This document shows positions 4,255 through 54,686 of a stretch of DNA of 64,000 nt, piece by piece. How positions within the stretch are numbered: position 1 is the stretch's first letter; every line of letters begins with the position of its first letter. The stretch is from a bacterium (GTDB lineage: Bacteria; Electryoneota; Electryoneia; Electryoneales; Electryoneaceae). The DNA lies in NCBI GenBank assembly GCA_963675295.2, contig CAXXKJ010000002.1:2080001-2144000 (forward strand), in the 5' to 3' direction. Made by a program: the position numbers and the translations under genes. Under the pieces are notes generated by a model, which was not told the origin of the DNA, did not search any database, and saw nothing but the letters and a program-made list of their open reading frames with translations.

Positions 4255-4327
4255 TGGGGTGTCGCCAAGTGGCTAAGGCAGCGGTTTTTGGGGCCGCCAT
4301 TCGCAGGTTCGAATCCTGCCACCCCAG
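4255..4327 (+). tRNA. tRNA-Gln(UUG)
   Basis: Acceptor TGGGGTG/CACCCCA, anticodon arm GCGGT-TTTTGGG-GCCGC, T-loop GGTTCGAATCC; CCA not encoded. Confidence 0.95.
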
Positions 4328-4342
4328 CTGGGAGATAGCGTA

Positions 4343-6002: not shown

Positions 6003-6626
6003 GTGGATACGCGTCTCGTGGTCGGGCTGGGGAATCCGGGTCCAGAATATGAGACGACGTGGCACAACCTCGGTTTCCACGCACTCCGCAAGCTGGCGAA
6101 GCAGCTGAAGACCAGCTTCCGGATGGCTGATGAAGCGTTAATTGCCCAGGCGAATTTCGCCCGGATGGATGTTCGGCTGCTGTTGCCGCAAACGTACATG
6201 AACCTGAGTGGCAGGCCTGTACAGCGGTTGGCAAAGAAGCTGAACCTTGACTATGAGGAGATTCTGGTCGTGTATGACGACCACGATCTTCCTCGTGGCC
6301 AGTTGCGCATGCGTGAACGTGGCGGAGACGGAGGCCATCGCGGCCTCCGCTCCGTACTTTATGAAGTCGCTAGTGAAGAAATACCACGATTACGCGTAGG
6401 AATTCGTGACGAAAATCTCGATCCCGGTGTTGGGGGGTACGAAGATCTCGCGGATCGAGTGCTCGATGAGCTGACAGAGAACGAACTTACGCATATGGAT
6501 GCGATGGCGGATGCCGCTGCGGCGGCTGCTCGCGACTGGTTGGTTCTTGGTGCAAAACGAGCGATGAACATACACAACCGCAAACGTGTACCCGCCCCGG
6601 ATCAGGGCGAGGATACACAGCCATAG
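6003..6626 (+). CDS. pth: peptidyl-tRNA hydrolase
   Basis: LVVGLGNPG..HNLGF, TYMNLSG, GGDGGHRG; prs-rplY-pth order. Confidence 0.95.
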   Translation: MDTRLVVGLGNPGPEYETTWHNLGFHALRKLAKQLKTSFRMADEALIAQANFARMDVRLLLPQTYMNLSGRPVQRLAKKLNLDYEEILVVYDDHDLPRGQLRMRERGGDGGHRGLRSVLYEVASEEIPRLRVGIRDENLDPGVGGYEDLADRVLDELTENELTHMDAMADAAAAAARDWLVLGAKRAMNIHNRKRVPAPDQGEDTQP

Positions 6627-6708
6627 TGTGAGTATTGGGAGAGGGATGAACCTCGGTGACCCCGGCGGGTTCAATCCTTAGGTTGGCTAACGGAGGGGGT
6701 GCAGGAAA

Positions 6709-8916
6709 ATGGAGATGAACGGCATCATCTGGCTGCTGCCCGCGATGGGTGTCATCGGATTGATCTTTGCTGCCATCAAATCCGGTTGGGTGAAGAAGCA
6801 GGACCCGGGCACGGAGTACATGGTTGAGATCGGTTCTCACATTCGTGAAGGCGCCATGGCGTTCCTCGGACGTGAGTATCGTGTGCTCGCGATCTTCGTG
6901 GTCCTTGTGGCCATTCTGCTTGCGATTGCGAACATGAGCAAGGCAGAATCGTCCTGGTTGATCGCGGTTTCATTCGTTGTCGGTGCGTTCTGCAGCGCGC
7001 TCGCCGGTTATTTCGGCATGCGTGTGGCGACACTGGCGAACGTGCGTACGGCCAGCGCGGCGCGTAGCGGCCTGAACAAGGCGCTCGCGGTTGCGTTCTC
7101 TGGCGGTACGGTGATGGGCATGAACGTGGTCGGTCTCGGTGTGCTTGGCATCGGCCTGCTGTTCATTGTCTACGCGCTGTATTTCGCTGGTTTCGACAGT
7201 GCATCGAACCTCGCGCGTACGTTGCAGGTCCTGTCCGGTTTCTCGATGGGCGCCTCATCGATCGCGTTGTTCGCGCGTGTCGGCGGCGGGATTTACACCA
7301 AGGCCGCGGATGTTGGCGCGGACCTGGTCGGTAAGGTTGAAGCGGGCATTCCGGAAGACGATCCGCGCAACCCGGCGACCATCGCGGACAACGTTGGTGA
7401 CAACGTGGGCGACGTGGCCGGCATGGGCGCCGACCTCTTCGAATCGTTCGTCGGTTCGATCATCTCCGCGATGATCATCGGCGCGACGGCGTGGGTGACC
7501 GCGGCGGACGCGCAGGCGGCGATGAACCTGGTGCTGCTGCCGCTGTTGTTGGCGGGTGTCGGCATCATCGTGTCGATCGTCGGCACGTTCTTCGTCCGCA
7601 CGAAGGAAGGTGGCAACCCGCAGGCGGCGTTGAACATCGGCACCTTCGGCGCGGCCGGGATCATGGTTGTCGTCAGCTGGTTCATCATTGATTTCTTCGT
7701 CCCGGATTCAGTCATGATCGGCGCGACCGAGATGACTGCGCTGGGCATCTTCGTTGCGACCATCGTCGGCCTCGCGGCGGGTGTCGCGATTGGTATGATC
7801 ACGGAGTTCTACACCGCGAAAGACAAGGGTCCGGTGCTGAACATTTCGGACCAGTCGTTGACCGGTCCGGCGACGAACATCATCGCGGGTCTGGCGACGG
7901 GTATGAAGTCGACCCTGTGGCCGCTGCTGGTGCTTGCTGTCGCGATCATCATGGCGTACGAGTTTGCCGGCCTGTATGGTATTGCCATCGCGGCGCTCGG
8001 CATGCTGTCCACCACCGGTATTCAGCTCGCGGTTGACGCGTACGGCCCGGTTGCGGACAACGCCGGTGGTATCGCGGAAATGGCGGAGCTGCCGCACGAA
8101 GTTCGTGAACGTACAGACAACCTGGACGCCGTCGGCAACACGACGGCCGCCATCGGCAAGGGCTTCGCAATCGGTTCGGCCGCGTTGACAGCCCTCGCCC
8201 TGTTCAGCGCATTCACTACCGTGATCAACGCAAAATTCCCGGAAACTCAGTTCACGATCGACATTCTCGATCCGTGGGTGATGGCCGGTATGTTTGTCGG
8301 CGGCATGCTGCCGTTCCTGTTCAGCAGCTTCGCGATGGCCGCTGTCGGTAAGGCCGCGAAGGACATGATCGAAGAAGTCCGCCGTCAGTTCACCTCGATC
8401 CCAGAGCTCAAGGCTGCTTTGGCCGTGATGAAAGTGAAGCCGGAACGCGACGACTGGGACGAGAAGGATCAGAAGATCATCGACGCCGCGCGTGGCAAGG
8501 CTGAATACGCGAAGTGCGTGGACATTTCCACCGCCGCCGCGATTCGCCAGATGGTCATGCCGGGCATGGTCGCGATCCTGACCCCGCCGATCGTTGGTTT
8601 CGTTTTCGGCGCGCAGATGCTCGGCGGTCTGTTGGCTGGTGTGACGGTTTCCGGTGTGTTGATGGCGATCTTCCAGTCCAACGCCGGTGGTGCGTGGGAC
8701 AATGCCAAGAAGCAGATCGAAGGCGGCTTCAAGGGTTCGGATGGTCAGATGTACGGCAAGGGTTCTGAGCCGCACAAGGCAGCCGTCGTGGGTGACACGG
8801 TCGGCGACCCGTTCAAGGATACGTCTGGTCCGTCGCTGAACATCCTCATCAAGCTGATGTCGGTGGTCAGCCTCGTGATCGCCCCGCTGTTGACGCTCGG
8901 CGGTTTCTTCCGCTAA
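6709..8916 (+). CDS. hppA: membrane-integral ion-translocating pyrophosphatase, K+-dependent type
   Basis: [35 protein letters not shown] (Ala marks K+ dependence), [10 protein letters not shown]. Confidence 0.96.
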
Positions 8917-18313: not shown

Positions 18314-19808
<1,495 letters not shown>

Positions 19809-19985
19809 CTAAGGAGCAGGCAGTCTTTGGGAAGCCTAGCTGGACAGAACTGGAATGACACTGCCAGGTCTGCGAAGCGAAGCTGTTGCACCCGAGGACA
19901 CTAACTGCCGAAGGTCGAACGCACATGTAAGCGTGTACGCGAAGTGTATCCCACCAATCCCGCGCTTTGCGCGGGATTGGGTTGT

Positions 19986-20059
<74 letters not shown>

Positions 20060-20113
20060 CGTAAGTGGGCTCGGCTTCGAACGGATTGAGCGCGCGGCTG
20101 TCAGGTTTTTGAC

Positions 20114-20186
20114 GGGGCGTTAGCTCAGTTGGGAGAGCACCGGCTTTGCAAGCCGGGGGTCACCGGTTCGAGCCCGGTACGCTCCA
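20114..20186 (+). tRNA. tRNA-Ala(UGC)
   Basis: GGGGCGTTAGCTCAG..CCGGC-TTTGCAA-GCCGG..GGTTCGAGCCC..ACGCTCCA; G3:U70 pair. Confidence 0.97.
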
Positions 20187-20382
20187 CAGCGGGCGTCGCG
20201 GGTAGCGAGGCCGGCATACACGGATCTTTGACAAGCGAGGTTGTAAAGAGGTCTTCCTGATTTATGCTAGTCACATGAATCAGGTCGCGGAGCGCATTTT
20301 GAGGTACAAGAAGTACATAGTAGTACAATTGAGGTTTGTAGTCCGACCTCGTCCGTTTCCTGGATAAGGAAAGAAGGATTTC

Positions 20383-23287
<2,905 letters not shown>

Positions 23288-23392
23288 GATTCTTTTTTCC
23301 TGAACCCGGAAACGGGCGAAGTCGGATTAAAGATCTGTAAGTGCGTTCTGTAGTAAAACCTCTTAACAACCTCGTTTGTTCATCGAATTTTC

Positions 23393-23511
23393 CTTTCGGT
23401 GATCATTGCGCAGGGGAAACACCTCTTCCCATTCCGAACAGAGCCGTTAAGCCCTGCTGCGCCGATGGTACTGCTTGGGTAACCTTGTGGGAGAGTAGGT
23501 CGTCACCGAGG
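23393..23511 (+). rRNA. rrf: 5S rRNA
   Basis: CCCATTCCGAAC, GCCGATGGTACT, GGGAGAGTAGGTCGTCACCG. Confidence 0.96.
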
Positions 23512-51052: not shown

Positions 51053-52966
51053 CTACAGCCCCAGCAATTCCATCATCTTCTCACGCACCGCCTTCGATGC
51101 CACCCGTCCGCGCACGATGTCCATCGCGTGACCCATCGCCATCGCGAACACATTCTCCGGCAACCGTGGCTGTTCACCCTGCGCAAGGTCGATGGCTTCT
51201 TTTACCACGGCGGTCAGCTCGACGTCATCAACCGGCGTCCACTCGAGGAGTTCGAGCATCTCATCCAACGACAGTTGCGGGTGATCCACCCAATGCTGCA
51301 GCAGGTCGAAAAGGCCTTCACGGTACACACGTCCCGCGCCCAGTGCCCGCACGAGATCCTCGAGCTGTTCCAGCGACAAAGCTTCCACCGGATACTCACG
51401 CCGTTGCAATGCGGTCATCATGCGGCCGAGCAGTTCGCCCGAACGCATCGGTTCGACAGCCTGCTCAGCAACCAGCTTGTCGTGCAGCGACGCGTACGCC
51501 GTGATCGGCAGCAGGTCAACGATATCCTCCGGCAGGTTCTGCTCGCGGTACATCTCCTCGCGAACCCACGGCGCGACCGGTACCTTCGCCTTCGCCGCCT
51601 CGACACGTTCCGGCGCAATCTCATGCGGCGGGCTGTCGGTGTCCGGATACATCCGGTCCGGGCCGGGGAGGACGCGTTCGAAATCGTTCCAGTTGTTGCG
51701 TAACGCCTGCCGGGTTTCGTTCGGCACGCCCGCAATCGCCTGCGCGTAACGGTCGATGATCTCGTTGGTCGCGGTCAGCGTGTCTTCCTCAGGACCCCAG
51801 ACCACCACCGCGACATCGTCCGCGCCGGCGTCCGTCAGCTTCTCAAGCAGGGCGGTGTCGGCTTCATCCAGCCCGCCGGTGGGGCCGTCAGTGTGTAACA
51901 GGTTCGGCAGCATGTCGAGGCAGGCGACGACACGCACCTGGCCGGAGATGTCGTCCGCGAACCGGCGACCGTGCAAAGGCCAGCTGAGGACGCCTTTCGC
52001 ATTCGGGAACAAAACCACGCGCACCGAATCCCGCACCTGCACCGCGGCGGCGAGATCGGGGTTGTTGAAGCGGAGGCCGTCCAGGTCGAGTTCGACGACC
52101 CGGCCCGGCTTCTCGCCCGGGGTGAATCCGCGTTTCTGCAGCTCTTCGCTTAACGCAACCAGCCCGCGCTGACGATGGGCTTCGTAATCGGTGAGTTCGG
52201 CGATGCGGCTGATCGCCGGCACGCCCTTGATCTCGACACGGGTGGTGCCTTCGATCGAGACGTTCACGTCCTGCCGTCCCGCGCCAGCGCCACGCCGCAC
52301 CATCTGCGTCGCCCGCAGCATTCGCGCGATCCGCATCGCGGCTTCCTGCGCCTCTTCCGGTGTTTCCATCTGCTTCTCAGTGACCACCTCGATCAGCGGC
52401 ATTGAAAGACGATCGGCCATGAAAACAATACGGTGCCCATTGTCCGAGACTTCGCGGCAGGAATCTTCTTCCAGCCCGAGCTGGATCACGTGGATCATCT
52501 TGCCGTTGGAGAGCGGAAACTCGCCGTCCACACCGACAATCGCGGTGCGTTGGAACCCGCCGGGGATGGACCCGTCGAGGTACTGCTTGCGGATGATGTG
52601 CAGCTCGCCGACGATCTTGCAGTTGAATGCCTGCGCGATGGTCAACGCGATGTCGATCGCCTCTTCGTTGATCAGGAACGGCGGGGTGTCGTCCATCTCA
52701 TACGTGCAGACCGTTTCCCGGTTGAGACGGTAGATGATCTCTTTCTTCGTCTTGAATTCCATCAGCGCGGTGCCATCGTACTCACCGAGTTCGCTGAGGG
52801 TCGGGCGCATGTGACGCAATACTTCGGCGTCGTAATGATCCGAGTACTTCCCCGCCGGGCAATGGCAGAACAGTTTCTTTTCCGTCAGGATCTGGTGATG
52901 AATTTCCAATCCGCACCGGAACCCGTGCTGCTTCCAGTCGGTCTGATTGCCCGAATTACCGTTCAT
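51053..52966 (-). CDS. gatE: Glu-tRNA(Gln) amidotransferase subunit E (archaeal type)
   Basis: GLEIHHQ..KKLFC, RKQYLDGSIPGGFQRT, LEEDSCR, RQDVNVSI..RVEIKGV, GVPNETR, RVLPGPDRMYPDTD; SD AAGGAG. Confidence 0.9.
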   Translation of the reverse strand: MNGNSGNQTDWKQHGFRCGLEIHHQILTEKKLFCHCPAGKYSDHYDAEVLRHMRPTLSELGEYDGTALMEFKTKKEIIYRLNRETVCTYEMDDTPPFLINEEAIDIALTIAQAFNCKIVGELHIIRKQYLDGSIPGGFQRTAIVGVDGEFPLSNGKMIHVIQLGLEEDSCREVSDNGHRIVFMADRLSMPLIEVVTEKQMETPEEAQEAAMRIARMLRATQMVRRGAGAGRQDVNVSIEGTTRVEIKGVPAISRIAELTDYEAHRQRGLVALSEELQKRGFTPGEKPGRVVELDLDGLRFNNPDLAAAVQVRDSVRVVLFPNAKGVLSWPLHGRRFADDISGQVRVVACLDMLPNLLHTDGPTGGLDEADTALLEKLTDAGADDVAVVVWGPEEDTLTATNEIIDRYAQAIAGVPNETRQALRNNWNDFERVLPGPDRMYPDTDSPPHEIAPERVEAAKAKVPVAPWVREEMYREQNLPEDIVDLLPITAYASLHDKLVAEQAVEPMRSGELLGRMMTALQRREYPVEALSLEQLEDLVRALGAGRVYREGLFDLLQHWVDHPQLSLDEMLELLEWTPVDDVELTAVVKEAIDLAQGEQPRLPENVFAMAMGHAMDIVRGRVASKAVREKMMELLGL

Positions 52967-53218
52967 GCCGCCCACTCCTTGATCTCCCAAACCCGGCGCG
53001 CGGTTGTGCGCCGGCTGAGTCCGCCAAAACGTTGAAGTATAGTGCCCTTGGCGAATTCCCGCAACGATAACCTCGCGAGTCCGGGGCGGCGTCAGCGCGA
53101 GTCGGTGTGGGTGAGGGTTGGACTTGCTCACTTCGCCTGACCGCGCTACTTTGGCTCGGCGCGGGAGTGAAAAGGGGAACGCTTTCTCAATGAAGGATTT
53201 CTCAGTATCGGAACTGCC

Positions 53219-54241
53219 ATGATACCACGGACCTCAGCAACACGTATTCTGACCACTCTGCTGGTTCTCTCGCTTCTTGCCACCGGTTGCGGTTCGACCG
53301 GCGACAGCGGCCAGCCCCGTGAATTTACCATCGCGATGACCGGGTATTTGATGGGGCAGGTAGGGCCGTGCAAATGCCCCGGCAATCCGCTCGGTGGGTT
53401 CGCCCGCCGTGTCGCGGTGATGGAACGCGATCTCGACACGAAAGATGACGTGCTCAAAGTGGACACCGGCAAGTGGGTGTCGTTGGATCCGGATCGCGGT
53501 GTTGCCGATTCCCGGATCACCGCTGCCGTGCTGGCGGAACTGGGCACGGACGCGGTTAACATCACCATGCGCGACGCCCGTCTCGGCCGTGATCTGCTCA
53601 AGGATCTGCAGAAAGACTACAAGCTGCCATTTTTGTCGGCGAACCTGATCGACATGAATTCAGAGAAGACGATCTTCCCGGCGACGAAGCGGGTGACCTT
53701 GAAGTTCGCGGACGGCGGGTCGATGGACGTCGGCATCGTCGGTGTTTGCCGCGCCGGGACGAACAACTACATGCCGCCGGAGTCCGGGCTGGCGTTCGCG
53801 GATCCCGGTCCGGCATTGCTGGAAGCCTACCGGGAGGTTATGGACGCGCCGTGCGTGGTGCTGCTGACCGATGCCGACCGTGGTATCACCGCGGACTGGC
53901 TGGCGATGCTGGAGCAGGAAACCGGGTCGCGGCCGTCTGTGATCCTGTCCAGCAACTTGCACCCGACACGGTCCGCGCGGATTCTGATTGGCCAGACACC
54001 GATGACGACCACTGGCCGCCAGGGCAAGTACACCGACATCGTCACCATGGTACCGTTGGGTGAGGACGGTTGGGACGCGCAGAAGTCTGGCGTCGCGCTG
54101 AACTCGGAATCGCCGGAGGATGCGAAGACGATCGAGCTGATCGACAAGATCCTCGCGGACTACCCGGAGCTGGAAAACACGTCGTCAGCGCAGGAGGATG
54201 ACGACGATTTCGACGAGTACAAGGACCGGATCACACACTGA
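53219..54241 (+). CDS. lipoprotein with a degenerate 5'-nucleotidase/UshA-like metallophosphoesterase domain
   Basis: Lipobox LATGC; GPCKCPGNPLGGFARR, VDTG, LPFLSANL, VGIVGV. Confidence 0.7.
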   Translation: MIPRTSATRILTTLLVLSLLATGCGSTGDSGQPREFTIAMTGYLMGQVGPCKCPGNPLGGFARRVAVMERDLDTKDDVLKVDTGKWVSLDPDRGVADSRITAAVLAELGTDAVNITMRDARLGRDLLKDLQKDYKLPFLSANLIDMNSEKTIFPATKRVTLKFADGGSMDVGIVGVCRAGTNNYMPPESGLAFADPGPALLEAYREVMDAPCVVLLTDADRGITADWLAMLEQETGSRPSVILSSNLHPTRSARILIGQTPMTTTGRQGKYTDIVTMVPLGEDGWDAQKSGVALNSESPEDAKTIELIDKILADYPELENTSSAQEDDDDFDEYKDRITH

Positions 54242-54248
54242 GGAGCGG

Positions 54249-54686
54249 ATGAGCGAGCGGAAGCAGGCGGTTGATGCCATGCCCGAGGAAGTGATGAATT
54301 TGGTGCGTTCGGCCCGGCGTGCACGCCGGAACGCGGTGGTCCCCTTGACTCACCACGCGTTCGGCGCGGCGTTGGAAGATGACGAAGGCCGGATCTGGCT
54401 CGGTTGCAACATCGAGTCGCAGTTTCCCGGTCACGGGATGACTGCCGAACGTGTAGCGTTGTACGCTGCCCTCGCTCAGGGAGCTCGTGGATTCACCCGG
54501 ATCGCCATCGTCGGTGCGGCGGGCGACATCATGCCGCGGCCGTGCGGTGCCTCGCTGCAGGCGTTGAGCGAACAGGTCCGTGACCTCGACATCATCCTCT
54601 TCAATCCGGACCAGAGTGAGTGGGCGATGTACCGGCTCAGCGAACTGCTGCCGTCGCCGGAATCCCTGTCACAGGTGGACGACTGA
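54249..54686 (+). CDS. cdd: cytidine deaminase-like protein with degenerate zinc ligands
   Basis: FGAAL..GCNIES..TAERVAL..PCGASLQ..ELLP. Confidence 0.75.
   Translation: MSERKQAVDAMPEEVMNLVRSARRARRNAVVPLTHHAFGAALEDDEGRIWLGCNIESQFPGHGMTAERVALYAALAQGARGFTRIAIVGAAGDIMPRPCGASLQALSEQVRDLDIILFNPDQSEWAMYRLSELLPSPESLSQVDD

Follow-up and report, generated by a model that had tools for sequence, protein, structure and literature searches.

A predicted GatE subunit encoded in a bacterial genome that also carries gatD and GlnRS

The window analyzed here is the whole 64,000-nucleotide stretch G000:C2:2080001-2144000 of a bacterial genome (G000; 4.81 Mb in two contigs, 92.8% complete), and the gene in question is gatE, which is predicted to encode the E subunit of the tRNA-dependent amidotransferase GatDE. 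The coding sequence lies on the minus strand at 51053..52966, with an ATG at 52966, 637 codons and a stop codon at 51053-51055, giving a protein of 637 amino acids (P0001). The open reading frame (ORF) at 51053..53131 would encode 692 amino acids if begun at GTG. The ATG at 52966 is the likely start because a Shine-Dalgarno-like AAGGAG, read from the sequence at 52975..52980 on the minus strand, is found 8 nucleotides upstream of it, and because the region similar to more distant relatives starts about 6 residues ahead of this methionine. A scan for promoters and terminators around gatE gave nothing above the level of shuffled sequence and no promoter-like consensus site upstream on the minus strand.

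The protein has a cradle domain in two parts separated by an insertion domain and followed by a tail, all encoded on the minus strand. The N-terminal part of the cradle (residues 10-280; 52127..52939) contains GLEIH, RKxxxDGSxxxGFQRT, EED, and RQDVNVSI; the insertion domain follows (residues 281-400; 51767..52126), then the C-terminal part of the cradle, which holds LPGPDRMYPDTD (residues 401-455; 51602..51766), and a helical and YqeY-like tail (residues 456-637; 51056..51601), the part predicted to bind the D-loop of the tRNA, a role described in a passage of PMC2811023. All 3 GatE motifs claimed by the first-pass annotation of this DNA are present, RKQYLDGSIPGGFQRT at residue 126, RQDVNVSI at residue 231, and LPGPDRMYPDTD at residue 433. 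Among Pfam families, GatB_N covers residues 18-454 and GatB_Yqey residues 499-635 (30.1 bits; cut-off 27). The central insertion that the annotation had also pointed out is indeed there, at approximately residues 281-400, but it is no extra element, being the usual AspRS-like insertion domain of GatE.

To classify the protein, we compared it with GatE and GatB models, as the first-pass annotation had proposed. P0001 passed the NCBIfam GatE equivalogs NF003107 (481.5 bits; cut-off 456) and TIGR00134 (408 bits; cut-off 319.55) over residues 8-633 and failed every GatB model, the best of these giving 150.5 bits against a cut-off of 338 and none of the GatB cut-offs, all at or above 314.8, being reached. 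In a sequence search of solved structures, the archaeal GatE chains 2d6f_C and 1zq1_C matched at full length (E = 4.7e-90 and 1.5e-86), compared to 66 bits for the best GatB chain. As the annotation had stated, P0001 lacks the GatB motifs RKNYFYPD and YRYFPEPD; they are present in true GatB of the same phylum (5/5 and 4/5, respectively, of the GatB proteins drawn from its genomes). A lookup of P0001 in a protein-cluster atlas returned GatE clusters exclusively.

An alignment of 64 GatE sequences (40 bacterial and 24 archaeal) has 50 invariant columns, and P0001 retains 50 of 50. They include E21, H23, R126, K127, D131, G132, F138, Q139, R140, T141, E166, E167, R231, D233, N235, S237, and K247 in the N-terminal part of the cradle and R406, E417, R419, R431, G435, R438, Y440, P441, T443, and D444 in the C-terminal part; some of these we take to be catalytic. 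In the tail, the MG..M...RGR stretch is retained, and G612, M615, and G620 are nearly invariant. Mean identity to the 24 archaeal sequences was 0.44 for the cradle, 0.21 for the insertion domain, and 0.23 for the tail. Comparison of the alignment with archaeal GatE revealed no large insertion or deletion specific to the bacterial clade. The insertion domain of P0001 gave no sequence match to Pfam GAD; a precomputed GAD match is carried by most archaeal relatives versus 2 of 120 among the nearest relatives listed, those named being bacterial.

An AlphaFold model built with the 64-sequence alignment reached a predicted local distance difference test score (pLDDT) of 92.6 and a predicted template modeling score (pTM) of 0.89, with pLDDT 93-97 in the insertion domain and an all-helical tail. 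A single-sequence model of P0001 (pLDDT 38.5) was discarded. The best Foldseek match was 1zq1_C (E = 5.2e-46; template modeling score, TM, 0.82 by target; 510 columns, insertion domain included), next 2d6f_D and 2d6f_C, then GatB chains (E = 1e-26 to 1e-19) and, from E = 3.6e-3, weak matches to AspRS, which fit an AspRS-like insertion domain. By every test that we ran on sequence, P0001 classifies as GatE, a member of a known family, and its predicted fold is that of the solved GatE proteins.

GatD and GatE form a textbook pair. The first-pass annotation had reported that gatD does not adjoin gatE; this is correct for the immediate neighborhood, but an intact gatD is encoded approximately 1.3 Mb away on the same contig (G000:C2:3435769-3436983, minus strand; 510.6 bits, cut-off 324). 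Both genes are single copy. The 488-residue GatD product retains the asparaginase motifs GTGGTIASR, HGTDTM, and VRKMHSS and matches solved GatD at 409 bits (1zq1_A) and 380 bits. The genome search suggested by the annotation (gatD, gatABC, and glnS) thus found gatD and glnS; GatA gave no match at E ≤ 0.001 in this 92.8% complete genome, the GatB model matched gatE itself only, and GatC was not searched for. G000 also encodes a complete GlnRS (727 bits), AsnRS (469.9 bits), and one copy of GluRS (527 bits). The annotation had proposed a bacterial route to Gln-tRNA. An intact GatE with a GatD fits such a route, but since GlnRS is complete, GatDE would not be the sole possible one, and is a second route at most.

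The gatE locus is native and old. The contig that carries it is 4,539,756 bases long, and the gene order at the locus (M16 peptidase, TrkA-type channel, gatE, lipoprotein, cdd-like gene, udk, tdk) recurs in 5 related genomes, namely 2 of the same genus, 1 of another genus, and 2 public contigs of metagenome-assembled genomes (MAGs), one of them labeled Calditrichaeota (G001, G002, G008, L023, and L028 overall). A chimeric contig, which would have undone the first-pass reading, is thus not what we see. The bacterial host context claimed there is borne out by a complete bacterial rRNA operon in the same window, 16S-tRNAIle(GAU)-tRNAAla(UGC)-23S-5S at 18314-23511, approximately 28 kb from gatE. 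Codon usage is likewise host-like as described: in a ranking of 398 long ORFs by distance from the genome mean, gatE is at the 6th percentile, and the codon usage of gatD is also typical of G000. Compared with a same-genus genome that has GlnRS, the ratio of nonsynonymous to synonymous substitution rates (dN/dS) was 0.075 for gatE and 0.062 for gatD; for the same pair of genomes it was 0.020 for tdk and 0.130 for the neighboring lipoprotein gene. These low values indicate strong purifying selection on both genes and show that gatE is no decaying gene.

We then assessed the distribution of GatDE in a sample of 41 genomes of the phylum, G000 included, whose kinship means that they are not independent. 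Matches over the cut-off were obtained for GatE in 29 genomes, GatD in 30, GlnRS in 24, GatA in 18, and AsnRS in 38; AsnRS was found at all in 39. The gatE carriers are spread over 7 families. Both subunits are present in 29 of the 41 genomes (pieces at contig ends counted) and neither in 8, while 4 have a single subunit, GatE only in 2 (92% and 79% complete) and GatD only in 2, one of these being G012; the two genes are thus co-inherited in the phylum. GlnRS accompanies GatDE in 19 of the 29, 3 of which also have GatA (one just under the cut-off). Among the 10 GatDE genomes with no GlnRS match, 9 have GatA, and in the remaining one (G029; 93% complete), which matches neither GlnRS nor GatA, GatDE is the only route found. 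In G012, which belongs to the family of G000, gatE (L122; G012:C33:547245-549124) is in three pieces with internal TGA stops, next to intact gatD, GlnRS, and GatA genes in the same genome, which looks like loss in progress.

A scan beyond the phylum, limited to one genome for each species, yielded 39 GatE loci from other bacteria, with titles that name Acidobacteriota (Thermoanaerobaculia, Holophagales, Terriglobales), Aminicenantes, Kapaibacterium, Calditrichaeota, Zixiibacteriota, Eisenbacteria, and a 'Deltaproteobacteria' MAG. A protein search returned at least 8000 relatives at E ≤ 1e-20, the named sources including Ignavibacterium, Ignavibacteriaceae, Bacteroidota, and Candidatus Electryonea, and public annotation already names the bacterial relatives GatE. 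Rather than an isolated oddity, the gatE gene of G000 is therefore one member of a bacterial group of very large size. An adjacent gatD was seen at 30 of the 39 loci, where it follows gatE directly in 29 cases and lies on the opposite strand in one (L033); for 5 of the other 9 loci, the flank ends within approximately 500 bases of gatE. Given this adjacency elsewhere, the unlinked state in the family of G000 is derived. Among 49 GatE loci, GluRS is encoded near gatE in one, on the Zixiibacteriota chromosome CP070742.1 (L056), where the GluRS gene at 6446-7456 is within approximately 1.5 kb of the end of the gatE match and gatD is not adjacent.

The candidate substrate is encoded in the window itself. 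ARAGORN predicts a tRNA-Gln(UUG) at 4255..4328 on the plus strand, with U1-A72 and G73, and the tRNA-Gln(CUG) of the genome, outside the window at G000:C2:633828-633901, has the same U1-A72 and G73. The tRNA-Glu and tRNA-Asp of G000 begin with G1. In the phylum, tRNA-Gln(UUG) was matched in 36 of 41 genomes, U1-A72 occurs in 33 of the 34 tRNA-Gln genes parsed, and an alignment showed U1-A72 and G73 also in the tRNA-Gln(UUG) of 4 relatives with no GlnRS match, G029 among them. According to passages of PMC9499178 and PMC2811023, archaeal GatDE recognizes its tRNA by the first base pair (A1-U72) and the D-loop. Since the host tRNA-Gln has U1-A72, the bacterial enzyme is predicted to work with the opposite orientation of this pair. 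Two ideas on the place of GatDE in these genomes were considered and rejected. A division of labor between the tRNA-Gln isoacceptors does not agree with the finding of tRNA-Gln(CUG) at 29 of 29 loci, in genomes with and without GlnRS, and a replacement of missing AsnRS by GatDE does not agree with the 39 of 41 genomes in which AsnRS was found.

On the GluRS side, we examined the column taken to correspond to Thermus Arg358, a residue linked to discrimination against tRNA-Gln; its equivalence is one we infer from alignment to chain 8i9i (where this Arg is counted as residue 350) and from PMC2978374. Two GluRS matches were obtained in 19 of the 41 genomes of the phylum (loci L067-L115), and the second copies often have Glu, Gly, Asn, or Lys at this inferred column. 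In a passage of PMC2978374, Helicobacter pylori GluRS2 is described as having Glu334 at a specificity position. The residues at the column suggest that the second copies are paralogues of GluRS2-like or non-discriminating type. In G033, such a second copy occurs together with GlnRS, and no amidotransferase was found there.

To place the protein in a phylogeny, we started from a search of representative proteins, whose 2908 matches (E ≤ 0.001) fall in 2 groups, one at 42-52% identity to P0001 (approximately 440-600 bits) and the other at 28-37% identity (approximately 250-340 bits). The second group is archaeal: 2 of its members gave 497-611 bits against solved archaeal GatE, and relatives of 2 others are named Njordarchaeota, Heimdallarchaeota, Odinarchaeia, Bathyarchaeota, and Thermoprotei, among others. 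Trees were built with 115 of 150 listed representatives, of 590-700 amino acids, and rooted with GatB proteins of the same phylum; L029 and L039 were left out since they have no ORF that passes the motif filter. A FastTree analysis of 145 rows recovered a clade of 57 rows that includes all the named bacterial ones (support 98) and a clade of 82 archaeal rows (support 94). IQ-TREE was run under LG+C20 with posterior mean site frequencies (PMSF) on sets of 67 and 37 rows hand-picked to span the clades. With 67 rows, the bacterial clade had support 100 and was sister to Heimdallarchaeota-type GatE (97); a careful run with 37 rows supported the bacterial clade at 100/100 and its grouping with Heimdallarchaeota-type GatE at 99/97. 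P0001 branches with bacterial GatE at 100/100 and apart from GatB, which settles in favor of GatE the phylogenetic check that the first-pass annotation had outlined.

The trees thus place bacterial GatE beside Heimdallarchaeota-type GatE with good support, but the root cannot be located from the long branch to GatB. When the 20 archaeal rows of the 37-row set were constrained to a single clade, the log-likelihood fell by only 4.45 units, with p = 0.187 in the approximately unbiased (AU) test (p-AU), for an archaeal set that excludes P0477, a row removed after the tree was seen. As archaeal monophyly is not rejected at this value, the root, and with it the direction and timing of any transfer, are not fixed. 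If the root lies within the archaeal rows, bacteria would have received the gene once, in an ancient transfer from an Asgard-like donor; if it lies between the 2 clades, the split would be older, and Heimdallarchaeota-type GatE would be the basal branch of archaeal GatE, a position hard to reconcile with the usual species tree. The trees are best read as suggesting an ancient exchange between the domains, so that the old inter-domain transfer of the first-pass annotation stands as regards a single bacterial clade next to Heimdallarchaeota-type GatE, but not as regards its root and direction. P0477, labeled as a Thermoplasmata archaeon (longest contig 5,156,303 bases), falls inside the bacterial GatE clade and has no precomputed GAD match; it is either a mislabeled bin or a transfer back into archaea.

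We consider it likely, from the sequence comparisons above, that the product of gatE is one subunit of a functional bacterial GatDE, a tRNA-dependent Glu-tRNA(Gln) amidotransferase whose other subunit is encoded 1.3 Mb away. Catalytic activity, substrate, and the mischarging by GluRS are what we infer for it by homology: GatD, of asparaginase type, would release ammonia from Gln or Asn, and GatE would bind Glu-tRNA(Gln), phosphorylate the glutamyl side chain with ATP, and amidate it to yield Gln-tRNA(Gln). The Glu-tRNA(Gln) would come from mischarging of the U1-A72 tRNA-Gln by the single GluRS, in an enzyme lineage that would accept U1-A72 instead of the archaeal A1-U72. Alongside GlnRS, the pathway may supply part of the Gln-tRNA or may clear mischarged Glu-tRNA(Gln). 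Several observations weigh against this function. GlnRS, at 727 bits, makes GatDE dispensable on paper; the broken gatE of G012 means that the gene can be lost; and the single GluRS of G000 has Arg at the inferred Arg358 column, so that no Glu-tRNA(Gln) would be made if the Arg358 rule held in this genome. Two genomes with no GlnRS match (G017 and G029) have only Arg-type GluRS as well, which makes the rule unreliable in the phylum and the column not decisive.

The same facts can be turned toward other explanations. GatDE could be kept for a changed or extra job, such as another aminoacyl-tRNA, a condition-specific tRNA-Gln pool, or a role outside translation. Such a job would explain why GatDE is conserved even though 28 of the 29 GatDE genomes also have GlnRS (19) or, among the 10 without it, GatA (9), and it would agree with AsnRS in 39 of 41 genomes (38 over the cut-off), with the Arg-type GluRS of the G000 family, and with the fact that the two tRNA-binding regions, the insertion (identity 0.21) and the tail (0.23), have diverged more from archaeal GatE than the cradle has (0.44). 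However, all invariant residues of the catalytic cradle and the MG..M...RGR stretch of the tail are retained, both tRNA-Gln isoacceptors occur with and without GlnRS and give by presence or absence no sign of divided labor, and G029 appears to depend on GatDE for its Gln-tRNA, which leaves a changed job unlikely in our view. That gatE is instead a redundant leftover, with GlnRS having taken over and gatE and gatD being lost, draws on the GlnRS of G000, on the vanished gatD-gatE linkage in its family, on the broken gene of G012, and on the 8 of 41 genomes with neither gene. Loss is difficult to reconcile with dN/dS values of 0.075 (gatE) and 0.062 (gatD) between 2 genomes that both bear GlnRS, with intact frames that retain the invariant residues, with 19 genomes that hold both genes plus GlnRS, and with a locus that is stable across genera, and we regard it as very unlikely. 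Hardly any weight is left for a misread GatB or for archaeal DNA misjoined into a bacterial contig, given GatB scores of at most 150.5 bits against cut-offs of at least 314.8, the absence of the GatB motifs, a 4,539,756-base contig with a bacterial rRNA operon in the window and the same neighbors in 5 assemblies, host-like codons, and a 100/100 placement among bacterial GatE.

The working amidotransferase can be compared with the known systems. It resembles archaeal GatE (Methanothermobacter thermautotrophicus 2D6F and Pyrococcus abyssi 1ZQ1) in length, domain order, motifs, GatD partner, and predicted fold (TM 0.80-0.82 by target), and differs from it in that P0001 is 30-39% identical to the archaeal rows, belongs to a separate, purely bacterial clade, and has an insertion domain with no Pfam GAD sequence match. 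The system around it differs too, since the host tRNA-Gln has U1-A72 and G73, in contrast to the archaeal A1-U72, and GlnRS coexists with GatDE, whereas archaea are described as being without GlnRS (both in passages of PMC9499178). P0001 has a cradle and tail homologous to those of GatB in GatCAB and, as the sequences suggest, would act on Glu-tRNA(Gln) by the same kinase and amidotransferase reactions; unlike P0001, GatB has no insertion domain, and its partners are GatA and GatC. An amidotransferase beside GlnRS and AsnRS in one genome is also reported for Deinococcus, Thermus, and Bdellovibrio (in a passage of PMC4206432), but there it is GatCAB and here GatDE.

That GatDE is regarded as archaeal, as the first-pass annotation held, is confirmed by passages of a 2009 paper (PMC2811023) and two 2022 reviews (PMC9499178 and PMC8762117), where it is an 'archaeal signature protein' found 'exclusively in archaea'. 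Our full-text literature search, whose scope leaves out most subscription journals, found no paper that discusses bacterial GatDE; in PMC13047044, GatDE is mentioned in the reference list only. Models of the evolution of Gln-tRNA formation rest on an archaea-only GatDE, including the proposal that co-evolution of GatDE and tRNA-Gln kept GlnRS out of archaea. An intact and selected bacterial GatDE, native to its genome, present beside GlnRS and facing a U1-A72 tRNA-Gln, contradicts each part of this picture and would provide a natural test both of first-base-pair reading and of the coexistence of GatDE with GlnRS. What is new is thus the host domain, the bacterial-type tRNA-Gln to be served, and the coexistence with GlnRS, while the protein family itself is known.

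GatDE is conserved although it almost always occurs beside GlnRS or GatCAB. As a tentative proposal, which we put forward as possible rather than probable, bacterial GatDE could be a lineage of its own, in which a gatE-gatD operon was acquired once from a Heimdallarchaeota-like Asgard archaeon, re-tuned to U1-A72 tRNA-Gln, passed down in Acidobacteriota and in relatives of the Bacteroidota/Calditrichota group, and kept under strong selection beside GlnRS or GatCAB. If so, GatDE would do something that GlnRS and GatCAB cannot replace, with the clearing of Glu-tRNA(Gln) made by an incompletely discriminating GluRS, or service to a particular condition or tRNA pool, as candidate roles.

As for the genes around gatE, the peptidase, the channel, the uridine kinase, and the thymidine kinase were assigned by family (Pfam) matches. 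The ORF next to gatE (53219-54241, 340 amino acids) was read as a lipoprotein from its sequence, and the ORF that overlaps it (54198-54686, 162 amino acids) was read in the same manner as cdd-like, neither having a Pfam match at E ≤ 1e-5. Elsewhere on the contig, outside the window, the segment G000:C2:651625-651652 shows the pattern that results when an element integrates into a tRNA gene.

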